From positions 17,395-81,394 of the forward strand of contig JACOUB010000058.1 in assembly GCA_016178015.1 (NCBI GenBank): a DNA stretch of 64,000 nt. The letters run 5' to 3'. Origin of the DNA: Methylocystis sp. Lineage in GTDB: Bacteria; Pseudomonadota; Alphaproteobacteria; Rhizobiales; Beijerinckiaceae. Both the position numbers and the translations under genes were made by a program. The number at the start of each line of letters is the position of its first letter. Within the stretch, counting starts at the first letter, position 1. The notes under the pieces are model-generated. The model worked only from the letters and a program-made list of their open reading frames with translations. It was not told the DNA's origin and searched no databases. This document shows positions 9,084 through 48,391 of the stretch, in pieces.

Positions 9084-9118
9084 CTACTGACGCTTCGAGC
9101 TATCGAGCGACTGCCGCG

Positions 9119-9206
9119 TTGGCCTTCCCTTCGCCGGCATGACCCGGATCAGGTTCGATGGGTGCTTCTCAGCCGCTCTCGTTGAGCGGCGCCCCTCGCC
9201 ATTCAA
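9119..9206 (-). ncRNA. TPP (thi-box) riboswitch
   Basis: Minus strand reads GGCTGAGAAGCACCCATCGAACCTGATCCGGGTCATGCCGGCGAAGGGA, directly upstream of thiC. Confidence 0.95.
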
Positions 9207-13144: not shown

Positions 13145-13200
13145 GGACCGCGAGCCTTCAGGCTCGCGAGTTCGCCAGCGAGCCTGAAGGCTCGCGGTCC
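13145..13200. repeat. GGACCGCGAGCCTTCAGGCTCGC inverted REP pair (family 4)
   Basis: Perfect 23-bp inverted arms, each with an internal hairpin; copies at 25019 and 48260. Confidence 0.92.
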
Positions 13201-22796: not shown

Positions 22797-22825
22797 GGGA
22801 CGAAAGCCTTGCTCGATTTCTCGCG

Positions 22826-22900
22826 GAGGACAGAGGACGGAGGACAGAGGACGGAGGACAGAGGACAGATCCGTCGTCTGTCCTGCGTGGTCCGTCGTCC
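22826..22900. repeat. Heptamer (GAGGAC[A/G])x6 followed by a reverse-complement arm (family 5)
   Basis: Direct reading of the sequence; 30 bp upstream of the rrf2 start. Confidence 0.92.
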
Positions 22901-25018: not shown

Positions 25019-25073
25019 GGACCGCGAGCCTTCAGGCTCGCTTGGTTCTTGCGAGCCTGAAGGCTCGCGGTCC
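25019..25073. repeat. GGACCGCGAGCCTTCAGGCTCGC inverted REP pair (family 4)
   Basis: Arms identical to 13145-13200; downstream of cysK. Confidence 0.92.
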
Positions 25074-26676: not shown

Positions 26677-27771
26677 GTGATGAGAGTTTCGTCGGAAGTC
26701 TGCAAGGACGAACGATCGTTCCCGGCAGAATTGCTGGGCGGCGTCGCCGCCGCCACGCGCTTTCCGATCCTGCCAATGCCGAGCCTCGCCTTTACGCCGG
26801 AGGTCGAAGCGGCGACGGCGCATCTTTACGAGCGCGTCGCCAAGGTCATGCCGGCGATCGAATGGCCGTTCCATGCGCCCTATGTCAAGGCGATCAACGA
26901 CGCCAAGCGCGAGCGCAACGCCGTCATTCTCGCCCACAACTACCAGACTCCGGAGATTTACCATTGCGTCGCCGATTGCGTCGGCGACAGCCTGCAGCTG
27001 GCCAAGCTCGCGGCCGCCTCCGACGCGGACATCATCGTGCAGGGCGGCGTGCATTTCATGGCGGAGACCTCGAAGCTGCTCAACCCCGAAAAGATCGTGC
27101 TCACGCCGGATGTGGAGGCCGGCTGTTCGCTGGCCGAGTCCATTGCCGGCGCCGACGTGCGGGCGCTGCGCGCCGAATATCCGGGCGTTCCGATCATAGC
27201 TTATGTCAACACTTCCGCGGAGGTGAAAGCCGAGGCGGACATTTGCTGCACCTCCTCGAACGCCCTGCGCGTCGTCGAGAGTTTTGGGGCCGGCAAGGTC
27301 ATCATGTTGCCCGACCGCTACCTCGCCGCCAACGTCGCCGCGCAGACCAAGGTGACGATCATCGCCTGGCGCGGCGCCTGCGAGGTGCATGAGCGTTTCA
27401 CCGCCCAGGAAATCCTCGACTATCGCGCCGACCATCCCGGCCTGAAGGTGATCGCGCATCCGGAATGCCCGCGCGAAGTGGTCGATGTTTCGGACTTCTC
27501 GGGTTCGACCGCCGCGATGATCGACTATGTGCGCACGAAGAAGCCGGCGCGCGTGCTGCTCGTCACCGAATGCTCGATGGCGGACAATGTGGCGGCCGAA
27601 ACGACGGGCACGCAATTCGTGCGGCCGTGCAATTTCTGTCCGCACATGAAGCGCATCACCCTGCCGAAGATCCTCGACAGCCTCATCCATGTTCGTGAAG
27701 AAGTGACGGTCGATCCCATTCTTGCTGCGCGAGCCCGCGCGAGCGTGCAGAGAATGATCGATCTGGGATAG
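26677..27771 (+). CDS. nadA: Quinolinate synthase
   Basis: [33 protein letters not shown]. Confidence 0.97.
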
Positions 27772-27915: not shown

Positions 27916-28103
27916 CCCTTCTCCCGTGCAACGGGAGAAGGCAGCCCTCGCGTCAGCGAGGGTCGGATGAGGGCGCTGGCGATTTGCCTCGCCATGGGCG
28001 GTGCGCCCGGTTCGGGCCGCTTGTTCTGATTTCGGAGAGCGCCGCTGGCCCTCATCCGACCCGGCTTCGCCGGGCCACCTTCTCCCGCGGCGCGGGAGAA
28101 GGG
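27916..28103. repeat. CCCTTCTCCC-type palindromic element (family 2)
   Basis: CCCTTCTCCCGTGCAACGGGAGAAGG...GGATGAGGGC / GCCCTCATCCGACC...CCTTCTCCCGCGGCGCGGGAGAAGGG. Confidence 0.88.
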
Positions 28104-28123
28104 TGAACACGGAAAGGCTCAGT

Positions 28124-28768
28124 ATGTCGGCGCCGACAGGAAATCTCGAAGCCGTGTTCGCGGCCCTCGACGCCGCCAACGCCGACGATCCTCGCAAGGT
28201 CGTCGTCGATGGCGCAGCGCGCTCCTTTGAAACGCTTTACGCGGAGCGCATGACGGCGCGTCTTGCCGCCCTCTATCCAGACGCGTCAAACCTCCTGAAG
28301 ATCGCCGCGCGCGCCCAACACCTCCGGCGCTGGGAGATTGCACGCGATCGCTTTCCGCCGGGGCGTCACGGCTACAATGATTGGCGCAAAGAATGCCGCG
28401 CCCATCACGCGCTGCTCGCCGGCGCGATCATGCGCGAACATGGCTTCGATGACGACGCAATTCGACATGTCGCGATGATCATACGCAAGGAACGGATGAA
28501 GAAAGACCGCGAAGCCCAAGCGCTCGAGAATGTCGCCGCGATCGTCTTCATCGAGCATTATTTCGATGACTTCCACGCCAAATACCCTGACTACGACGAC
28601 GACAAGATGATCGACATTCTCGGCAAGACCTTGTGCAAGATGTCGCCCAAGGGACACGCCGGCGCCCTCGCCTTGCCCTTGCCCGCAACGACGCGCCGAC
28701 TCGTCGCCGCGGCTATCGAGCGCCAATCGAAGGCGCTGGAGAGGCTCGCGGCAGTCGCGGTCGACTGA
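28124..28768 (+). CDS. DUF4202-family protein
   Basis: [38 protein letters not shown]. Confidence 0.85.
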
Positions 28769-28793: not shown

Positions 28794-30359
28794 ATGGCCA
28801 CGCCTCGCATTCTCATTATCGGCGGCGGACTCGCCGGAGCGTTCTGCGCGCTGAAGCTCGCGCCGCTGCGCGTCGCCATCCTCGCGCCGACGCCGATCGG
28901 CGCCAGCGGCTCCTCGTTCTGGGCGCAGGGCGGCATAGCGGCGGCGGTGGAGGAAGGCGATACGCCAGAAATGCACGCCGCCGACACGGTTGCGGCCGGC
29001 GCCGGGATCGTCGATCAATCTGTCGCACTCGGCATGGCGCACGAAGCGCGCGCGCGCGTAAATGACCTCGCCGCGTTCGGGGTTCCTTTCGACCGCGCCG
29101 CGCTCGGGCAATTAGCGCTTTCGCGCGAGGCGGCGCATTCGCGCCGCCGCGTCGTCCGCGTCAAGGGCGACACTGCCGGCCGCGCGATCATGGAGACGCT
29201 GGCGAGGCAGATGGCGAAGACGCCGTCAATCGACGTCATCGAAGGTTTCGCCGCCGAGGAGATCATCACCCACGACGGCCGCGTCATCGGCGTGCGCGCC
29301 CGCTCGGCGGCGGGCGCATGGCGCGACATTCCTTGCGCCGCCCTGGTTCTGGCCACCGGCGGCGTCGGCCGCCTCTACCGCGTCACCACCAACCCGAAGG
29401 AAGCGCGCGGCGCCGGCCTCGCCATGGCGGCGCACGCCGGAGCAGTCATCGCCGACGCGGAGTTCGTGCAATTTCATCCCACCGCCATCGACATCGGCGC
29501 CGATCCCGCTCCGCTCGCCACCGAATCCTTACGCGGGGAAGGCGCGATCCTCGTCGACCGCCATGGGCGCCGCTTCATGCCAGACATCGATCCGGCGGCC
29601 GAGCTCGCGCCGCGCGACGTGGTCGCGCGCGCCGTGTTCGCGCAAATCGCCGCCGGCAGGGGCGCCTTTCTCGACGCGCGCCAAGCGGTCGGGGCGGAAT
29701 TTCCGACGCGCTTTCCGACCGTCTACGCCAGTTGCATGGCGGCCGGCATCGATCCCGTCACGACCCCCATCCCGATCGCGCCGGCCGCCCATTACCACAT
29801 GGGCGGCGTGTGGACCGACGCCAACGGCAGGACCTCGCTCGTAGGATTATGGGCGGCGGGCGAGGTCGCCTCGACCGGCGTGCACGGCGCCAATCGGCTG
29901 GCCTCCAATTCTCTCCTGGAGGCGATCGTGTTCGGCGCGCGCATCGCCAACGATATCCGGAGAACAGAGGATGGAGGACAGAGGACAGACGACGGAAAGC
30001 TCTGTCCTCCGTCGTCTGTCCTCTGTCGTCCGTCGCCTGACGCCGCCTCGACAGAAGACGCGGCGATGCTCGAAGAATTGCGCGACGCCATGTCGTCGAA
30101 GGTCGGCGTCATTCGCGACGGCGCCGGATTGACGAGCGCGTTGCGCACGATCGCCAGAATCGAAGCGGAGGCGAAAGACATCGAGCTTCGCAACATGGCG
30201 ACCGCCGCGCTGCTCATCGCGACCGCGGCGCTGGCTCGGCGCGAGAGCCGTGGCGCGCACTTCCGCTCCGACTATCCCGCCGCCCTTCCGGAGTTCGCGC
30301 ATCGCTCGCACATGACGCTCGAAGACGCCCGCGCCATCGCGAGAGAGGCGGGGTCATAG
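28794..30359 (+). CDS. nadB: L-aspartate oxidase
   Basis: [52 protein letters not shown]. Confidence 0.97.
29960..30039. repeat. Heptamer palindrome (family 5) in frame inside nadB
   Basis: GAGAACA GAGGATG GAGGACA GAGGACA GACGACG ... TCTGTCC TCCGTCG TCTGTCC TCTGTCG TCCGTCG; encodes [26 protein letters not shown]. Confidence 0.9.
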
Positions 30360-30540: not shown

Positions 30541-31260
30541 CTACATGAACACCTTTCGCCGCTTGAACGCTCTCACATCCTCTGCGCTCAATTCAAACCA
30601 TTCGCCATTCTTCCGCTTCGTCTCGAATCGCTTGTGCCAATAGGCTTCAATCCCAACAGGATCGTCCGTCTTGATGACGTGAACGGTGTCGGATTTGTCA
30701 GGCAGTTGGATCGAAAGCTCGCGCTCCCGCCGCCCAAAGGCGTTGCTGCGGCCGAGCTTATAGAAGCGCCCAGATTTCAATAGATACACGTCGCCGATTT
30801 CGTATTCGTCTTTCGGCTCTGGTTCTGATTTCAAAGCCTCCTTGGTTGGGGTCGCCTCGCATATCTTCACTATATCCTCAAAGCCATCGCGGGCGCGGCA
30901 GTATTCGAGAACGCGAGCGATCCTTTGATTGCGGCTTCCCAGCTTGCCGAAGGTTTGCGGGCTCGGAAAATTTGGCGTGCTATGAGACTTCACCCGATGT
31001 TGCGGGTCAGTTGGAAAACATCCCACTTCACGAATAAATTCAACTAGGGTTTCAATAAGGGACATCTCGTCCATAGGCTGGGTAAATTGGTTTGGCGAAA
31101 AACCTGCTTCCCGAAGAGCGTCGCTCCATCTCGGCCAATATTTTTGCCAGTGGTACTGTTTTATTTTGGTTTCAGTGGCAAAACGAGCCGCTCCTGGAGG
31201 AGCGCCGCCATTTGATTTAGCCGACGCTTTGATGTGATCCAAAATCAATTGCTTGTTCAT
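30541..31260 (-). CDS. GIY-YIG-superfamily (T5orf172/MUG113-like) nuclease with an N-terminal helical domain; alternative start at 31311
   Basis: C-terminal GDVYLLKSGRFYKLGRS..FGRRERELSIQLP, IEAYWHKRF...KNGEWFEL; visibly lower GC than its flanks. Confidence 0.85.
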   Translation of the reverse strand: MNKQLILDHIKASAKSNGGAPPGAARFATETKIKQYHWQKYWPRWSDALREAGFSPNQFTQPMDEMSLIETLVEFIREVGCFPTDPQHRVKSHSTPNFPSPQTFGKLGSRNQRIARVLEYCRARDGFEDIVKICEATPTKEALKSEPEPKDEYEIGDVYLLKSGRFYKLGRSNAFGRRERELSIQLPDKSDTVHVIKTDDPVGIEAYWHKRFETKRKNGEWFELSAEDVRAFKRRKVFM

Positions 31261-31297
31261 TCGCCGTCTCTTTTTTACATCACGATGCGGCGGACTT

Positions 31298-31603
31298 TCA
31301 TCGGATTGCATATTGCACTTCGGCGGTCCGCACGACCTCGTCGCGGAAATGGCGGCTCAAATCCTCGGGCGTGCGCAAGTCCACCGGCTTGCCTCCGAGG
31401 AGGGCCGACAATTCGGCCTCGATGCCCGCTAGCCGCAAAAGGCCGGGTTCATGGCCGGGCTCGAACTTCACCAGCAAGTCAACGTCGCTATCGGGCCTCG
31501 TCGCGCCCTTCAGGGTCGAGCCGAACAAAGCCAGCCGCTCGATGTGATAGCGGGCGCAAACGGAGGCCAGGGCCGCGGCGTCTGGAAACAGACGATCAGG
31601 CAT
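31298..31603 (-). CDS. Minimal nucleotidyltransferase (MntA-like); no HEPN partner
   Basis: [20 protein letters not shown] (GS..D.D), [21 protein letters not shown]. Confidence 0.93.
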
Positions 31604-31735
31604 GTTCCCCTCCTCCTCGCGGCGGCAGGCCGCCCCTGGCGACCGCGCGCGCGCTTTCACGACTCTGGTCAGCTTCGCGCCGAACCATTATACCGCATCT
31701 TAGTCCCGCCCCGCTCTTGTTATACCATCGGTCAC

Positions 31736-31842: not shown

Positions 31843-32697
31843 ATGACCCGTCCCACCCTTTCGCCGCTGCTCGTCGAGCGCGCCGTCCGCGCGGCGCTCG
31901 AGGAAGATATCGGCCGCGCCGGCGACATCACGACGCAAGCCATCGTTCCAGAAACCGCGTTCGCCAAGGCGGTCGTCGCCGCGCGCGAGGCGGGCGTCGT
32001 TGCAGGCCTGCCGCTGGCGCGGGCGGCGTTCAGCATCATTGATCCCGCGGTCCACTTCGAGGCGCTCGTCCACGACGGCGCGCGCGTCACGACAGGCCAA
32101 GTCGTCGCGCGCATCGAAGGTCCGGCGCGGGCGATCCTGTCGGCCGAGCGCGTGGCGCTGAATTTTCTCGGGCGGCTCAGCGGCGCGGCCTCTCTTACCG
32201 CGCGTTACGCCGAGAAAATCGCCCACACGAAGGCCAAGGTCTGCGATACGCGCAAGACGACGCCGCTGTTGCGCGCTTTCGAGAAATACGCGGTGCGGTG
32301 CGGCGGCGGCGCCAACCATCGCTTCGGATTGGACGACGCCATCCTCGTCAAGGACAATCACATCGCCGTGGCGGGCGGGGTGACGGCGGCGCTGCGCGCC
32401 GCCAAGGCTTTTGCCGGCCATCTGGTGAAAATCGAGATCGAGGTCGACACATTGACGCAATTGCGCGAGGTCTTGGAAGAAGGCGCCGACGCCGTGCTGC
32501 TCGACAATATGACGGTGGCGCAATTACGCGAGGCGGTGGCGCTGATCGACGGAAAGCTCGTTAGCGAAGCCTCCGGCGGCGTGACGATGGAGACGATCGC
32601 GGATATCGCCGCAACCGGCGTCGATATGATCTCGGTCGGCGCGCTCACCCATTCGGCCCCGGCGCTCGATCTTGGGCTGGATGTGGAGATCGGCTGA
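31843..32697 (+). CDS. nadC: Nicotinate-nucleotide pyrophosphorylase (carboxylating)
   Basis: [40 protein letters not shown]. Confidence 0.97.
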
Positions 32698-41801: not shown

Positions 41802-43436
41802 TCAATATTTAACTGTCGTGCGCAACCCAAAAACCGCGGCGTCGCGGATGCGCCTTACGGCGAGGCTTGCGGGATCGATGGCGCCGCCGCCGGGATGGAA
41901 AATATATTGAAAATCCGGCTGAACGATCCACCCGGGAATAACCTGCGCCTGATAAGCGAGCTCGAGCGCAACTTCATCGTCGCGGATCGGAGAAGCGGTT
42001 TGGGCAAAAAAAGCGTTATCGCGATCGAGCCCTCGCAGCGACGACGAAATCTCCGAATAGGCCGCCGCCAAGCCAAATGCGTCGTCTGGCCTCGCGTCCA
42101 AAAGGCCCATGAAGTTGACGCCCCCCTCGGCATAAAAATCAATCATATTGCGGTCCGACGGACTTGCCGACAGCCGCGCGAAAACCCCGGCGCCCTTCTT
42201 GGGGGCGTCTGCGGACGCACGCCAGATCATCTGATCAATCACGCCATAAACGCCCCAATCGCCGCGATGCGGCAAAGGAACGCCATTGCTCGACGGATCG
42301 GCGAGCGAAAGAGCGTCTGTGCCGAAACGCTGATCGTCGAACCTGCTGAAATGGCGCCATACGCCGAGCTTGATGGTCCCGGCAAGGCCTGACGAGCTGT
42401 TGTCCTGATTGTGCTTGACTTGTGCTTCCCCGATCACGAATGGCGGATCCTTGAGTCGGAAATTAATTCCCGCCGGGTCCTTGAACTCCTGCAATCCCGT
42501 GAAGCGCGCCCCCGAAGGATCGCCGTTGAACGCGGCGGCGAGAAGGGTGATTTGATCATTCGGGCTCACTTTGAGACGCACGCCGGGCGTCGCCAGCGGG
42601 TAGGCCGGGCCGCCGCTCGGCAAATCTGCCGAGGTTATGTTGGGCCAGCCGAACGTCCCGTTGACATACAAGGCGCCGAGTTCGCTGATGAAGAATTCGG
42701 CATCGGCGGCCAACTGACCAACACGGATCGACGCTGCGTCGCCAAAAAGTTTCTGTTCAAGCCAGGCGTCGAACAGCCGCGTCGTCGCCCGCGCCTCGAT
42801 GCTGCTGATCGTCGAGAAGTTGAAAATGCAACAGGTGGAGAGACCCCGGCCGTGGATTTGATAGGCGTCGATGTGAAACGAGGCGCCGGTCAAACCGGCG
42901 ATCTTGTCGAGATCGCCGTCGACCGCCATTTCGAGCAGACCCTCGTAAATCGCGCCCCGCTTGACGCCGCCGCTGGGGTTGCCGAAGACCTCGCCGGTAT
43001 AATTGACTTGCAAATTGAAGCCGCGATCGAGCAGCGCCTTCTTGAAGTCCCCCAGCGCGGGAACGCTGGAGGAGATCGAGGGCTGCTCGCTTGCCGGCGC
43101 CGCTATGGATTCGCTTACATGCGCTGGCGAGGTCAACACGACCCGTTCTTCGCCGGTGAAGGTCCTGGTGCTCGACGACGTCACGGGCGCCGGCGCCAGC
43201 GCCGGAGCGGGTCGAGCGGCGCGAACCGGGGTTGGGCGTTGCGGCTTTGCAGTCCCGACCGTTCGTTTCGCTTTTGCAGCCCCGACCTCGATTTTCGGCA
43301 ACGGCGCCTGCGCGAGCGCCGCGGATGAAACGAGCGTCGCGACCAACGCGAACGCTCTCGCGCTCCGCAGGAGATTGAAACTCGGCACACGGGAACGCGG
43401 GCCGCTACTTACGGCTCTCGAGATCGGGGACTGCAT
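41802..43436 (-). CDS. OprB-family (carbohydrate-selective type) porin with an unusual N-terminal extension
   Basis: YTGEVFGNPSGG, SIRVGQLAADAEF, GWP...SADLPSGGPAYP..TPG, VQPDFQYIFHPGG, terminal GLRTTVKY. Confidence 0.92.
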   Translation of the reverse strand: MQSPISRAVSSGPRSRVPSFNLLRSARAFALVATLVSSAALAQAPLPKIEVGAAKAKRTVGTAKPQRPTPVRAARPAPALAPAPVTSSSTRTFTGEERVVLTSPAHVSESIAAPASEQPSISSSVPALGDFKKALLDRGFNLQVNYTGEVFGNPSGGVKRGAIYEGLLEMAVDGDLDKIAGLTGASFHIDAYQIHGRGLSTCCIFNFSTISSIEARATTRLFDAWLEQKLFGDAASIRVGQLAADAEFFISELGALYVNGTFGWPNITSADLPSGGPAYPLATPGVRLKVSPNDQITLLAAAFNGDPSGARFTGLQEFKDPAGINFRLKDPPFVIGEAQVKHNQDNSSSGLAGTIKLGVWRHFSRFDDQRFGTDALSLADPSSNGVPLPHRGDWGVYGVIDQMIWRASADAPKKGAGVFARLSASPSDRNMIDFYAEGGVNFMGLLDARPDDAFGLAAAYSEISSSLRGLDRDNAFFAQTASPIRDDEVALELAYQAQVIPGWIVQPDFQYIFHPGGGAIDPASLAVRRIRDAAVFGLRTTVKY

Positions 43437-43564
43437 GCAAGGACTCGCAGCAAACGTGGGCCGTCACTGCGAAGGGTCTCTGCCCACCCGGCGGCGATGA
43501 CGCCCGGCATGGGTTTCGGCCGCCTCGGTGCACCCCGCCCGACGCTTTCGCGCGTGACCACGAA

Positions 43565-43745
43565 CGATGGCAGGTCTCCTGGCTCGCGGGTCGTCGCCTC
43601 GGACCGCCTTCCCAGGAACGCGCTCGTCCCAGTGGCCTATCGGTCATCGGCTGGCCGCTCACAGTTGCGGGGGCAGCTGCGGCATCGCGCGCATCGAAGC
43701 GCTCACCGCATTCCCATTTGATCCCTTAAAGGGAACCATCGTTTC
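43565..43745 (-). ncRNA. Cobalamin (AdoCbl-type) riboswitch
   Basis: Minus strand: GGTTCC...GGGAATGCGGTG...GCCGCAGCTGCCCCCGCAACTGTGAGCGG...GCCACTGGGA...CTGGGAAGGC...GCGAGCCAGGAGACCTGCCATC. Confidence 0.95.
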
Positions 43746-43868
43746 CATTTGACACGCTGATCGCCTAATGGTCAAGGCGCCGGCGCACGATTGGCCAAGC
43801 GTCAAACGGCCACTAGGGCATAGCGCGCAAACTGGCTAAAGTCGAAGCCGCTGATTCGACGGTGGTCC

Positions 43869-48209: not shown

Positions 48210-48259
48210 TGGCCCGCGTCACATAAAATGAAGGGTGCGCTGGAGGGTGGGTTCGATTT

Positions 48260-48317
48260 GCGAGCCTGAAGGCTCGCGGTCCAGGGCCGCTCTTGGAGCG
48301 CGAGCCTTCAGGCTCGC
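48260..48317. repeat. Family 4 REP pair in outward-facing orientation, between convergent hpnA and hpnK
   Basis: GCGAGCCTGAAGGCTCGCGGTCC...GGAGCGCGAGCCTTCAGGCTCGC. Confidence 0.88.
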
Positions 48318-48391
48318 ACAAATAAACCAATCAATTTGGCTGACGCAGGCCTCTAGAGCTTTTTCATGTTTCGTGGAAACAAGAAAAAGCT

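Follow-up and report, generated by a model that had tools for sequence, protein, structure and literature searches.

The 64-kb stretch of Methylocystis DNA analyzed here (the window) carries nadB, the gene for L-aspartate oxidase, as an intact ORF encoding 521 aa (28794-30359, +). Its product is 100% identical to the NCBI entry "L-aspartate oxidase [Methylocystis sp.]", a MAG protein, and its closest solved structure is that of E. coli NadB (1CHU, E 2e-93). Membership in the NadB family is indicated by this match, by the Pfam domains FAD_binding_2 (residues 6-374, E 7e-80) and Succ_DH_flav_C, by retention of every column that is invariant in 84 homologues, and by the flanking genes nadA (26677-27771) and nadC (31843-32697). 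From conservation alone, we infer that the enzyme is active and that nadB is expressed. A DUF4202 gene (28001-28768, +; E 4e-63) separates nadA from nadB and shares their strand. Between nadB and nadC, two antisense ORFs break the cluster (30541-31660, −), one encoding a nuclease (MUG113/T5orf172, GIY-YIG-like) and the other a nucleotidyltransferase of the MNT type.

The hairpin element in nadB and its intergenic copy

Within nadB, a repeat-encoded segment of 81 nt (29958-30038, +) supplies 27 codons, in frame, for residues R389-P415; positions 29958-30039 read CGG AGA ACA GAG GAT GGA GGA CAG AGG ACA GAC GAC GGA AAG CTC TGT CCT CCG TCG TCT GTC CTC TGT CGT CCG TCG CCT G. About five GAGGACR units precede a loop region of 11 nt, and about five complementary units follow it. 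The element's left, purine-rich arm (29960-29996, +; GAGAACA GAGGATG GAGGACA GAGGACA GACGACG GA) encodes 12 residues, and its right, pyrimidine-rich arm (30008-30039, +) complements the left and, together with the apical loop region (AAGCTCTGTCC; 29997-30007, +, in the best-pairing register), encodes a K plus 13 residues. TRF finds tandem, head-to-tail 7-nt units on both arms, with 4.9 copies of the consensus GAGGACA on the left (29960-29993, period 7) and 4.0 to 4.6 copies on the complementary arm (30000-30035, period 7). Read in all three frames, GAGGACA yields an EDRGQRT cycle and its complement a CPLSSVL cycle, with no stops in either.

The best inverted repeat pairs 32-nt arms at 29965-29996 and 30008-30039, which are 88% complementary and have 11 nt between them; an alternative register leaves a 4-nt loop (AAGC) and is 76% complementary. 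The facing arrays are capable of forming a stem-loop: the computed RNA fold of 29950-30050 reaches −61.8 kcal/mol versus −35.3 ± 3.7 kcal/mol for shuffled sequences (z = −7.1; 0 of 200 shuffles as good), its stem comprises 26 bp (29970-29996 paired with 30008-30034, one mismatch), and the stability of the hairpin across fold computations is −58 to −62 kcal/mol. The original prediction had described five GAGGACA-like units, a loop, and complementary units translated within NadB, which the sequence, TRF, the inverted repeat, and the ORF all confirm; its expectation that the mRNA could form a long hairpin is supported by the computed fold. No Rfam family matched the hairpin at the gathering threshold, and at E ≤ 1 the matches were generic miRNA-precursor models far below threshold. 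We placed the edges of the element where homology with a relative from a metagenome (run X3, below) ends, at about 29957, and restarts, at 30039 (GACGCCGC...). What follows is leftover native linker, DAASTEDA (30039-30062, +), which corresponds by homology to DAASVEDS in the X3 relative and, in orthologues, to the xGDDxA / RDRDFA region. Neither end of the element shows a target-site duplication, and we saw no other signature of transposition.

The 13-mer GAGGACAGAGGAC, allowing up to 2 mismatches, has 14 matches in the window, compared with 0.9 expected and never more than 4 in 100 shuffles; with the exception of a single 2-mismatch site at 42081, they fall at 22826-22885 or 29960-30030. A scan for coding copies, which covered the window, gave the same two DNA loci, with nadB as the sole coding copy. 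The other locus, where the repeat had also been noted (at 22826), is an intergenic hairpin (22824-22900, +) about 7 kb from the nadB copy, in the divergent spacer between rrf2 (−, start 22808) and tauE (23116, +). It consists of six GAGGAC(A/G) units followed by a shorter, imperfect complementary arm, and its fold is computed at −43.6 kcal/mol (z = −3.2). TRF reports 22824-22866 as period 14 with 3.1 copies (6.3 heptamer copies) and 100% matches, versus 77 to 80% for the degenerate units of the nadB copy. The degeneracy of the coding units is consistent with selection against perfect repeats in a gene, where they are prone to frameshifts, or with greater age; it would lower the rate of frameshifting by 7-nt slippage, though age could equally explain it.

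The NadB linker in homologues and in metagenomes

In 18- and 84-sequence alignments, the only hypervariable stretch of NadB lies between ...ARIAxDI and ...EELRD. Measured from NSLLE to VGVIR across 170 homologues, the modal length is 51 aa (73 of the 170) and the range is 38 to 60 aa, with the window protein, at 60 aa, the longest. Using the 148 pentapeptides that GAGGACR/GACGACR arrays can encode on either strand, we found 17 overlapping array-type pentapeptides in the window NadB (residues 389-414), and in the other 169 homologues, isolated chance matches, all outside the linker. The repeat-encoded residues are absent from all 169 other NadB homologues compared, which excludes one way in which the original prediction could have failed, namely, that distant orthologues carry the same residues. 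A protein search scored on residues 345-465 returned no closer relative of the linker (best non-self match, 57 to 62% identity), and in a search scored on residues 386-426, self alone matched among 8 candidates.

An AlphaFold2 model based on the 84-sequence alignment has a mean pLDDT of 88.7 and a pTM of 0.91. Residues 391-420 are coil by DSSP with a pLDDT of 56 to 68 (block means of 61, 56, and 68), and this low-confidence coil is flanked by a helix at 370-393 (block 381-390, pLDDT 97) and a helix at 420-437 (block 421-430, pLDDT 95). Judged from sequence and model, the enzyme most likely still works, since the site of the element is a linker already free in length and sequence.

Related sequence came from six groundwater metagenome DNA runs; no RNA sequencing run with the element sequence was found. 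In run X1, a 767-nt Logan contig covers 29625-30357 without gaps, and because this independent assembly spans the element, an artefact of MAG assembly is ruled out. Run X3, from another study, yielded a 1,042-nt contig whose flanks are about 94% identical to the window (9 differences in 154 nt and 1 in 58 nt) and which has 97 other nucleotides in place of window positions 29954-30062 (109 nt); this replacement was read at its two 30-nt ends, the middle 37 nt being unread. After 29953 it continues C ATT TCC GCG CGT CAA CTG GCG CCG GTG GA, encoding D-I-S-A-R-Q-L-A-P-V, an ordinary Methylocystis-type linker, and its last 30 nt, CGC GCC GAC GCC GCG TCC GTG GAG GAC TCT, encode R-A-D-A-A-S-V-E-D-S, the 3' end being homologous to window GAC GCC GCC TCG ACA GAA GAC GCG from 30039. 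The X3 relative has 69 nt (23 codons) opposite the 81 nt (27 repeat-encoded codons) of the window, with the frame kept. In run X4, from a second study, a 145-nt contig aligns to 29924-30050 without gaps and differs at 15 of 127 nt (88% identity), so the X4 relative has a hairpin at the same position in nadB. The same run contains about 24 further Logan contigs with look-alike hairpins, and the summed depth over the left arm is about 1,400 to 1,600 versus 23 to 55 over the flanks; together, the look-alike contigs and the excess depth indicate that the hairpin family is dispersed and multicopy.

We conclude that the nadB element is real and recent, that it is polymorphic among near relatives (present in the window MAG and X4, replaced in X3), and that it overwrote linker instead of merely adding to it. 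Aligning orthologues to size the insertion, as had been proposed, gives a net length change, in frame, of +4 aa relative to the X3 relative and +9 aa relative to the family mode. The prediction that the linker had been replaced or extended while the frame was preserved is upheld by the orthologues that lack the residues, by the X3 allele, and by the AlphaFold2 coil, with the correction that the change is a replacement with little net gain and not an insertion of 26 aa.

GAGGACR arrays in other genomes and known repeat families

Scanning one genome for each GTDB species, we found at least 120 loci with the 21-mer GGAGGACAGAGGACRGASGAC, where about 1 match is expected under a uniform random model, an assumption that tandem repeats violate; the excess across phyla is uncalibrated against other heptamers. 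The listed matches include Verrucomicrobiota, Planctomycetota, Kiritimatiellia, Desulfobacterota, Alpha- and Gammaproteobacteria, Chloroflexota, Gemmatimonadota, Nitrospirota, and others. Hairpins made of a purine array, a spacer, and a pyrimidine array were recognized by eye at about one-third of the listed loci, and a strict pattern recovered 21 of 125. Across 0.8 Mb of the listed loci, 239 of approximately 465 tandem arrays have a period of 7, with 76 different units, in agreement with the published overrepresentation of heptameric simple-sequence repeats (SSRs) (PMC4692102, PMC4679880).

At least eight arrays among the listed loci run in frame within proteins. Arrays lie between Pfam domains in UvrA (L011), in a histidine kinase (L086), in a radical-SAM protein, where the array is read on the complementary strand (L055), and in a DinG-like helicase (L030:2267-4666, −) with three separate array segments, DDGRQTPDDGRQTADR, GGQRTEDGGQTAEGGQRT, and GGRMTEDGRQTAEGG; in an E2 acyltransferase (L047), the array is located between the lipoyl and E3-binding domains. 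A single Pfam domain is interrupted in a squalene-hopene cyclase (L028) and in a GATase_5 protein (L075). Among the listed loci, nadB finds its closest analogue in a Rhodospirillales MAG (L084), where a full hairpin (−58.5 kcal/mol) in DNA polymerase I encodes 27 residues between the 5'-3' and 3'-5' exonuclease domains. A further array occupies the N-terminal linker of a TonB (L044) and is bordered by a Pfam domain on just one of its sides.

In an uncultured proteobacterium (L004:700-960), a hairpin built from the GAGGACR unit begins about 10 nt past the 3' end of the 16S rRNA (…GGATCACCTCCTTTCT), within the 16S-23S spacer, and its complementary arm follows about 90 nt further on. At two loci (L083:5920-6440 and L024:797-1294), GAGGACR arrays are directly upstream of 23S_rRNA_IVP / bAvd-like four-helix-bundle genes, the L083 protein belonging to PF05635 (E 6e-25). 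An iterated HMM search of the ORFs of 120 listed loci and the window found 4 four-helix-bundle genes at 3 loci, two of them directly downstream of an array, and none of the 23S-IVS type within the window; 4 genes are too few to call a link between the arrays and these genes.

The original prediction compared the element to Rickettsia palindromic elements (RPEs), which Ogata and colleagues are said to have described in 2000 as palindromic repeats found both between genes and in frame within functional genes. RPEs form defined consensus families of roughly 100 to 150 bp and are not known outside Rickettsia. The parallel holds in behavior: the nadB element is also palindromic, occurs both intergenically and in frame, and contributes a surface or linker peptide to a protein that apparently still functions, here at a structurally tolerant site of a conserved ORF. 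Kinship is unlikely: the Methylocystis element is 81 nt long, lacks any consensus beyond its 7-nt unit, differs between copies in the number and order of units, and is of a heptameric SSR type found in many phyla. REP, BIME, and REPIN sequences are likewise dispersed, imperfect, hairpin-forming palindromes of tens of nucleotides, usually extragenic, and are mobilized by RAYT transposases; however, REPs have a conserved family sequence, contain no tandem subrepeats, and are rarely translated, whereas GAGGACR copies share the 7-nt unit only.

The nadB element belongs with heptameric SSRs, as paired convergent arrays. Such repeats reportedly include the STRR heptamers of cyanobacteria, described by Mazel and colleagues in 1990. 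Others are the (GGGAATC)n repeats of Xanthomonas, which include convergent pairs, and the Nostoc unit GGGGA(C/T)T (PMC4692102), as well as the TAACTGA unit of Beggiatoaceae and cyanobacteria, for which stop codons within the unit are argued to determine whether it can lie in an ORF (PMC4679880). The likeness extends to tandem 7-nt units, copy numbers that vary even among close relatives, and some inverted pairs able to form stem-loops; the known cases are mostly intergenic, whereas here the unit is GAGGACR and both arms lie in frame inside a housekeeping enzyme. A full-text literature search for the GAGGACR unit in bacteria found no description, the matches being primers, eukaryotic sequences, and papers on Coxiella MLVA.

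Origin of the nadB element

We consider it probable that the nadB segment is a passenger, a copy from a family of heptamer-array hairpins, which overwrote part of the linker and has been tolerated there. The family would have the form (GAGGACR)n, short spacer, (YGTCCTC)n and would normally lie between genes. In this Methylocystis lineage, one such hairpin would have taken the place of about 69 nt in the linker, a hypervariable and disordered stretch that joins the last helix of the FAD-binding domain to the C-terminal helical domain, and the 81 nt now there are in frame. Another copy may have been the source, through template switching or gene conversion, or an insertion may have been combined with a deletion. 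The passenger would persist because the unit and its complement are stop free in any frame, because the length differs by a whole number of codons, and because the linker already varies freely in length and sequence. Counted against this explanation are the differing unit order of the intergenic and nadB copies, which have just the unit in common, the absence of a visible transposition signature, and the fact that no mobilizing enzyme has come to light. An mRNA hairpin of about −60 kcal/mol may also influence translation or mRNA decay. We considered and dropped translational bypass or excision of the hairpin, as the segment is stop free and in frame and nothing requires a bypass.

The copy need not have been imported if a heptamer array grew from the linker's own sequence through replication slippage and the inverted arm then formed by local snap-back or template switching, a course of events that we regard as unlikely. 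It would suit the dominance of heptamers among the tandem repeats of genomes with the unit (239 of about 465 arrays, listed loci), the overrepresentation and variable length of bacterial heptameric SSRs (PMC4692102 and PMC4679880, both citing Mrazek et al. 2007), and the differing unit order among copies, and possible seeds are at hand in GGAGGAC of the X3 linker (GTG GAG GAC) and in GACAGAAGAC just 3' of the window element. However, the passage from 69 nt to 81 nt leaves no alignable similarity of ≥80% where X3 was read and does not consist of 7-nt steps onto retained sequence, and the two-arm layout recurs at other loci of related organisms (X4) and 7 kb away in the window.

A more speculative proposal, to which we give little credence, is that an active, sequence-directed process common to many phyla writes and renews heptamer hairpins at module boundaries, possibly tied to the 23S-IVS proteins. 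The boundaries would be those between cistrons, in rRNA spacers, and at junctions of protein domains, and if the proposal were true, the NadB linker would be hit recurrently, and its hairpin would be no one-off accident.

It is slightly less credible still that the hairpin is a selected cis-acting element of nadB or the nad operon, serving as an RNase III site, an interdomain pause, a determinant of mRNA stability, or a contingency switch based on frameshifting. The stem is very stable (26 bp, −58 to −62 kcal/mol), it lies exactly at a domain boundary, as do the arrays of other proteins, and the X4 relative keeps the hairpin at the same length with 88% identity. Against this, the element is missing from X3, the closest relative seen, and from the 169 other homologues; purifying selection alone would leave arrays at domain boundaries; units degenerate to 77 to 80% in the coding copy, versus 100% in the intergenic one, make slippage-based switching unlikely; and the Rfam models matched are just the subthreshold generic hairpins. 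A selected RNA or DNA function is not needed to account for the data. Least plausible is that we are looking at an assembly artefact or a decaying nadB pseudogene that tolerates anything: the sequence comes from a MAG, de Bruijn graphs break at palindromes, and contigs from a further run (X2) stop inside the loop, but the X1 contig spans the element, X4 carries this element at an identical position, and nadB retains an intact ORF, all of the family-invariant residues, and a model that is confident outside the linker.

If the passenger reading holds, the window and X3 would form a clean pair of filled and unfilled alleles in which repeat DNA rewrote part of an essential-pathway enzyme, apparently without breaking it, and the linker between the FAD domain and the C-terminal domain of NadB would be marked as freely replaceable. 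The rules of survival are legible in the sequence: the unit is stop free on both strands, the length change is divisible by three, and the site is a disordered linker. Together with the arrays in UvrA, PolA, E2, and further proteins of other phyla, the nadB case points to heptamer arrays as a general and underdescribed source of linker peptides, and of annotation surprises, in environmental bacteria. It also raises the question of what causes one 7-nt unit to recur across phyla.

The window contains further structured elements. A separate family of REP-like palindromes, composed of GGACCGCGAGCCTTCAGGCTCGC and its complement in perfect 23-nt arms about 10 nt apart, is present in three copies (13145-13200, 25019-25073, and 48248-48329). 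On the minus strand, two riboswitches exceed the Rfam gathering threshold, a TPP riboswitch (9108-9206, 65 bits) and a cobalamin riboswitch (43552-43755, 133 bits), both of which are unrelated to the hairpin.
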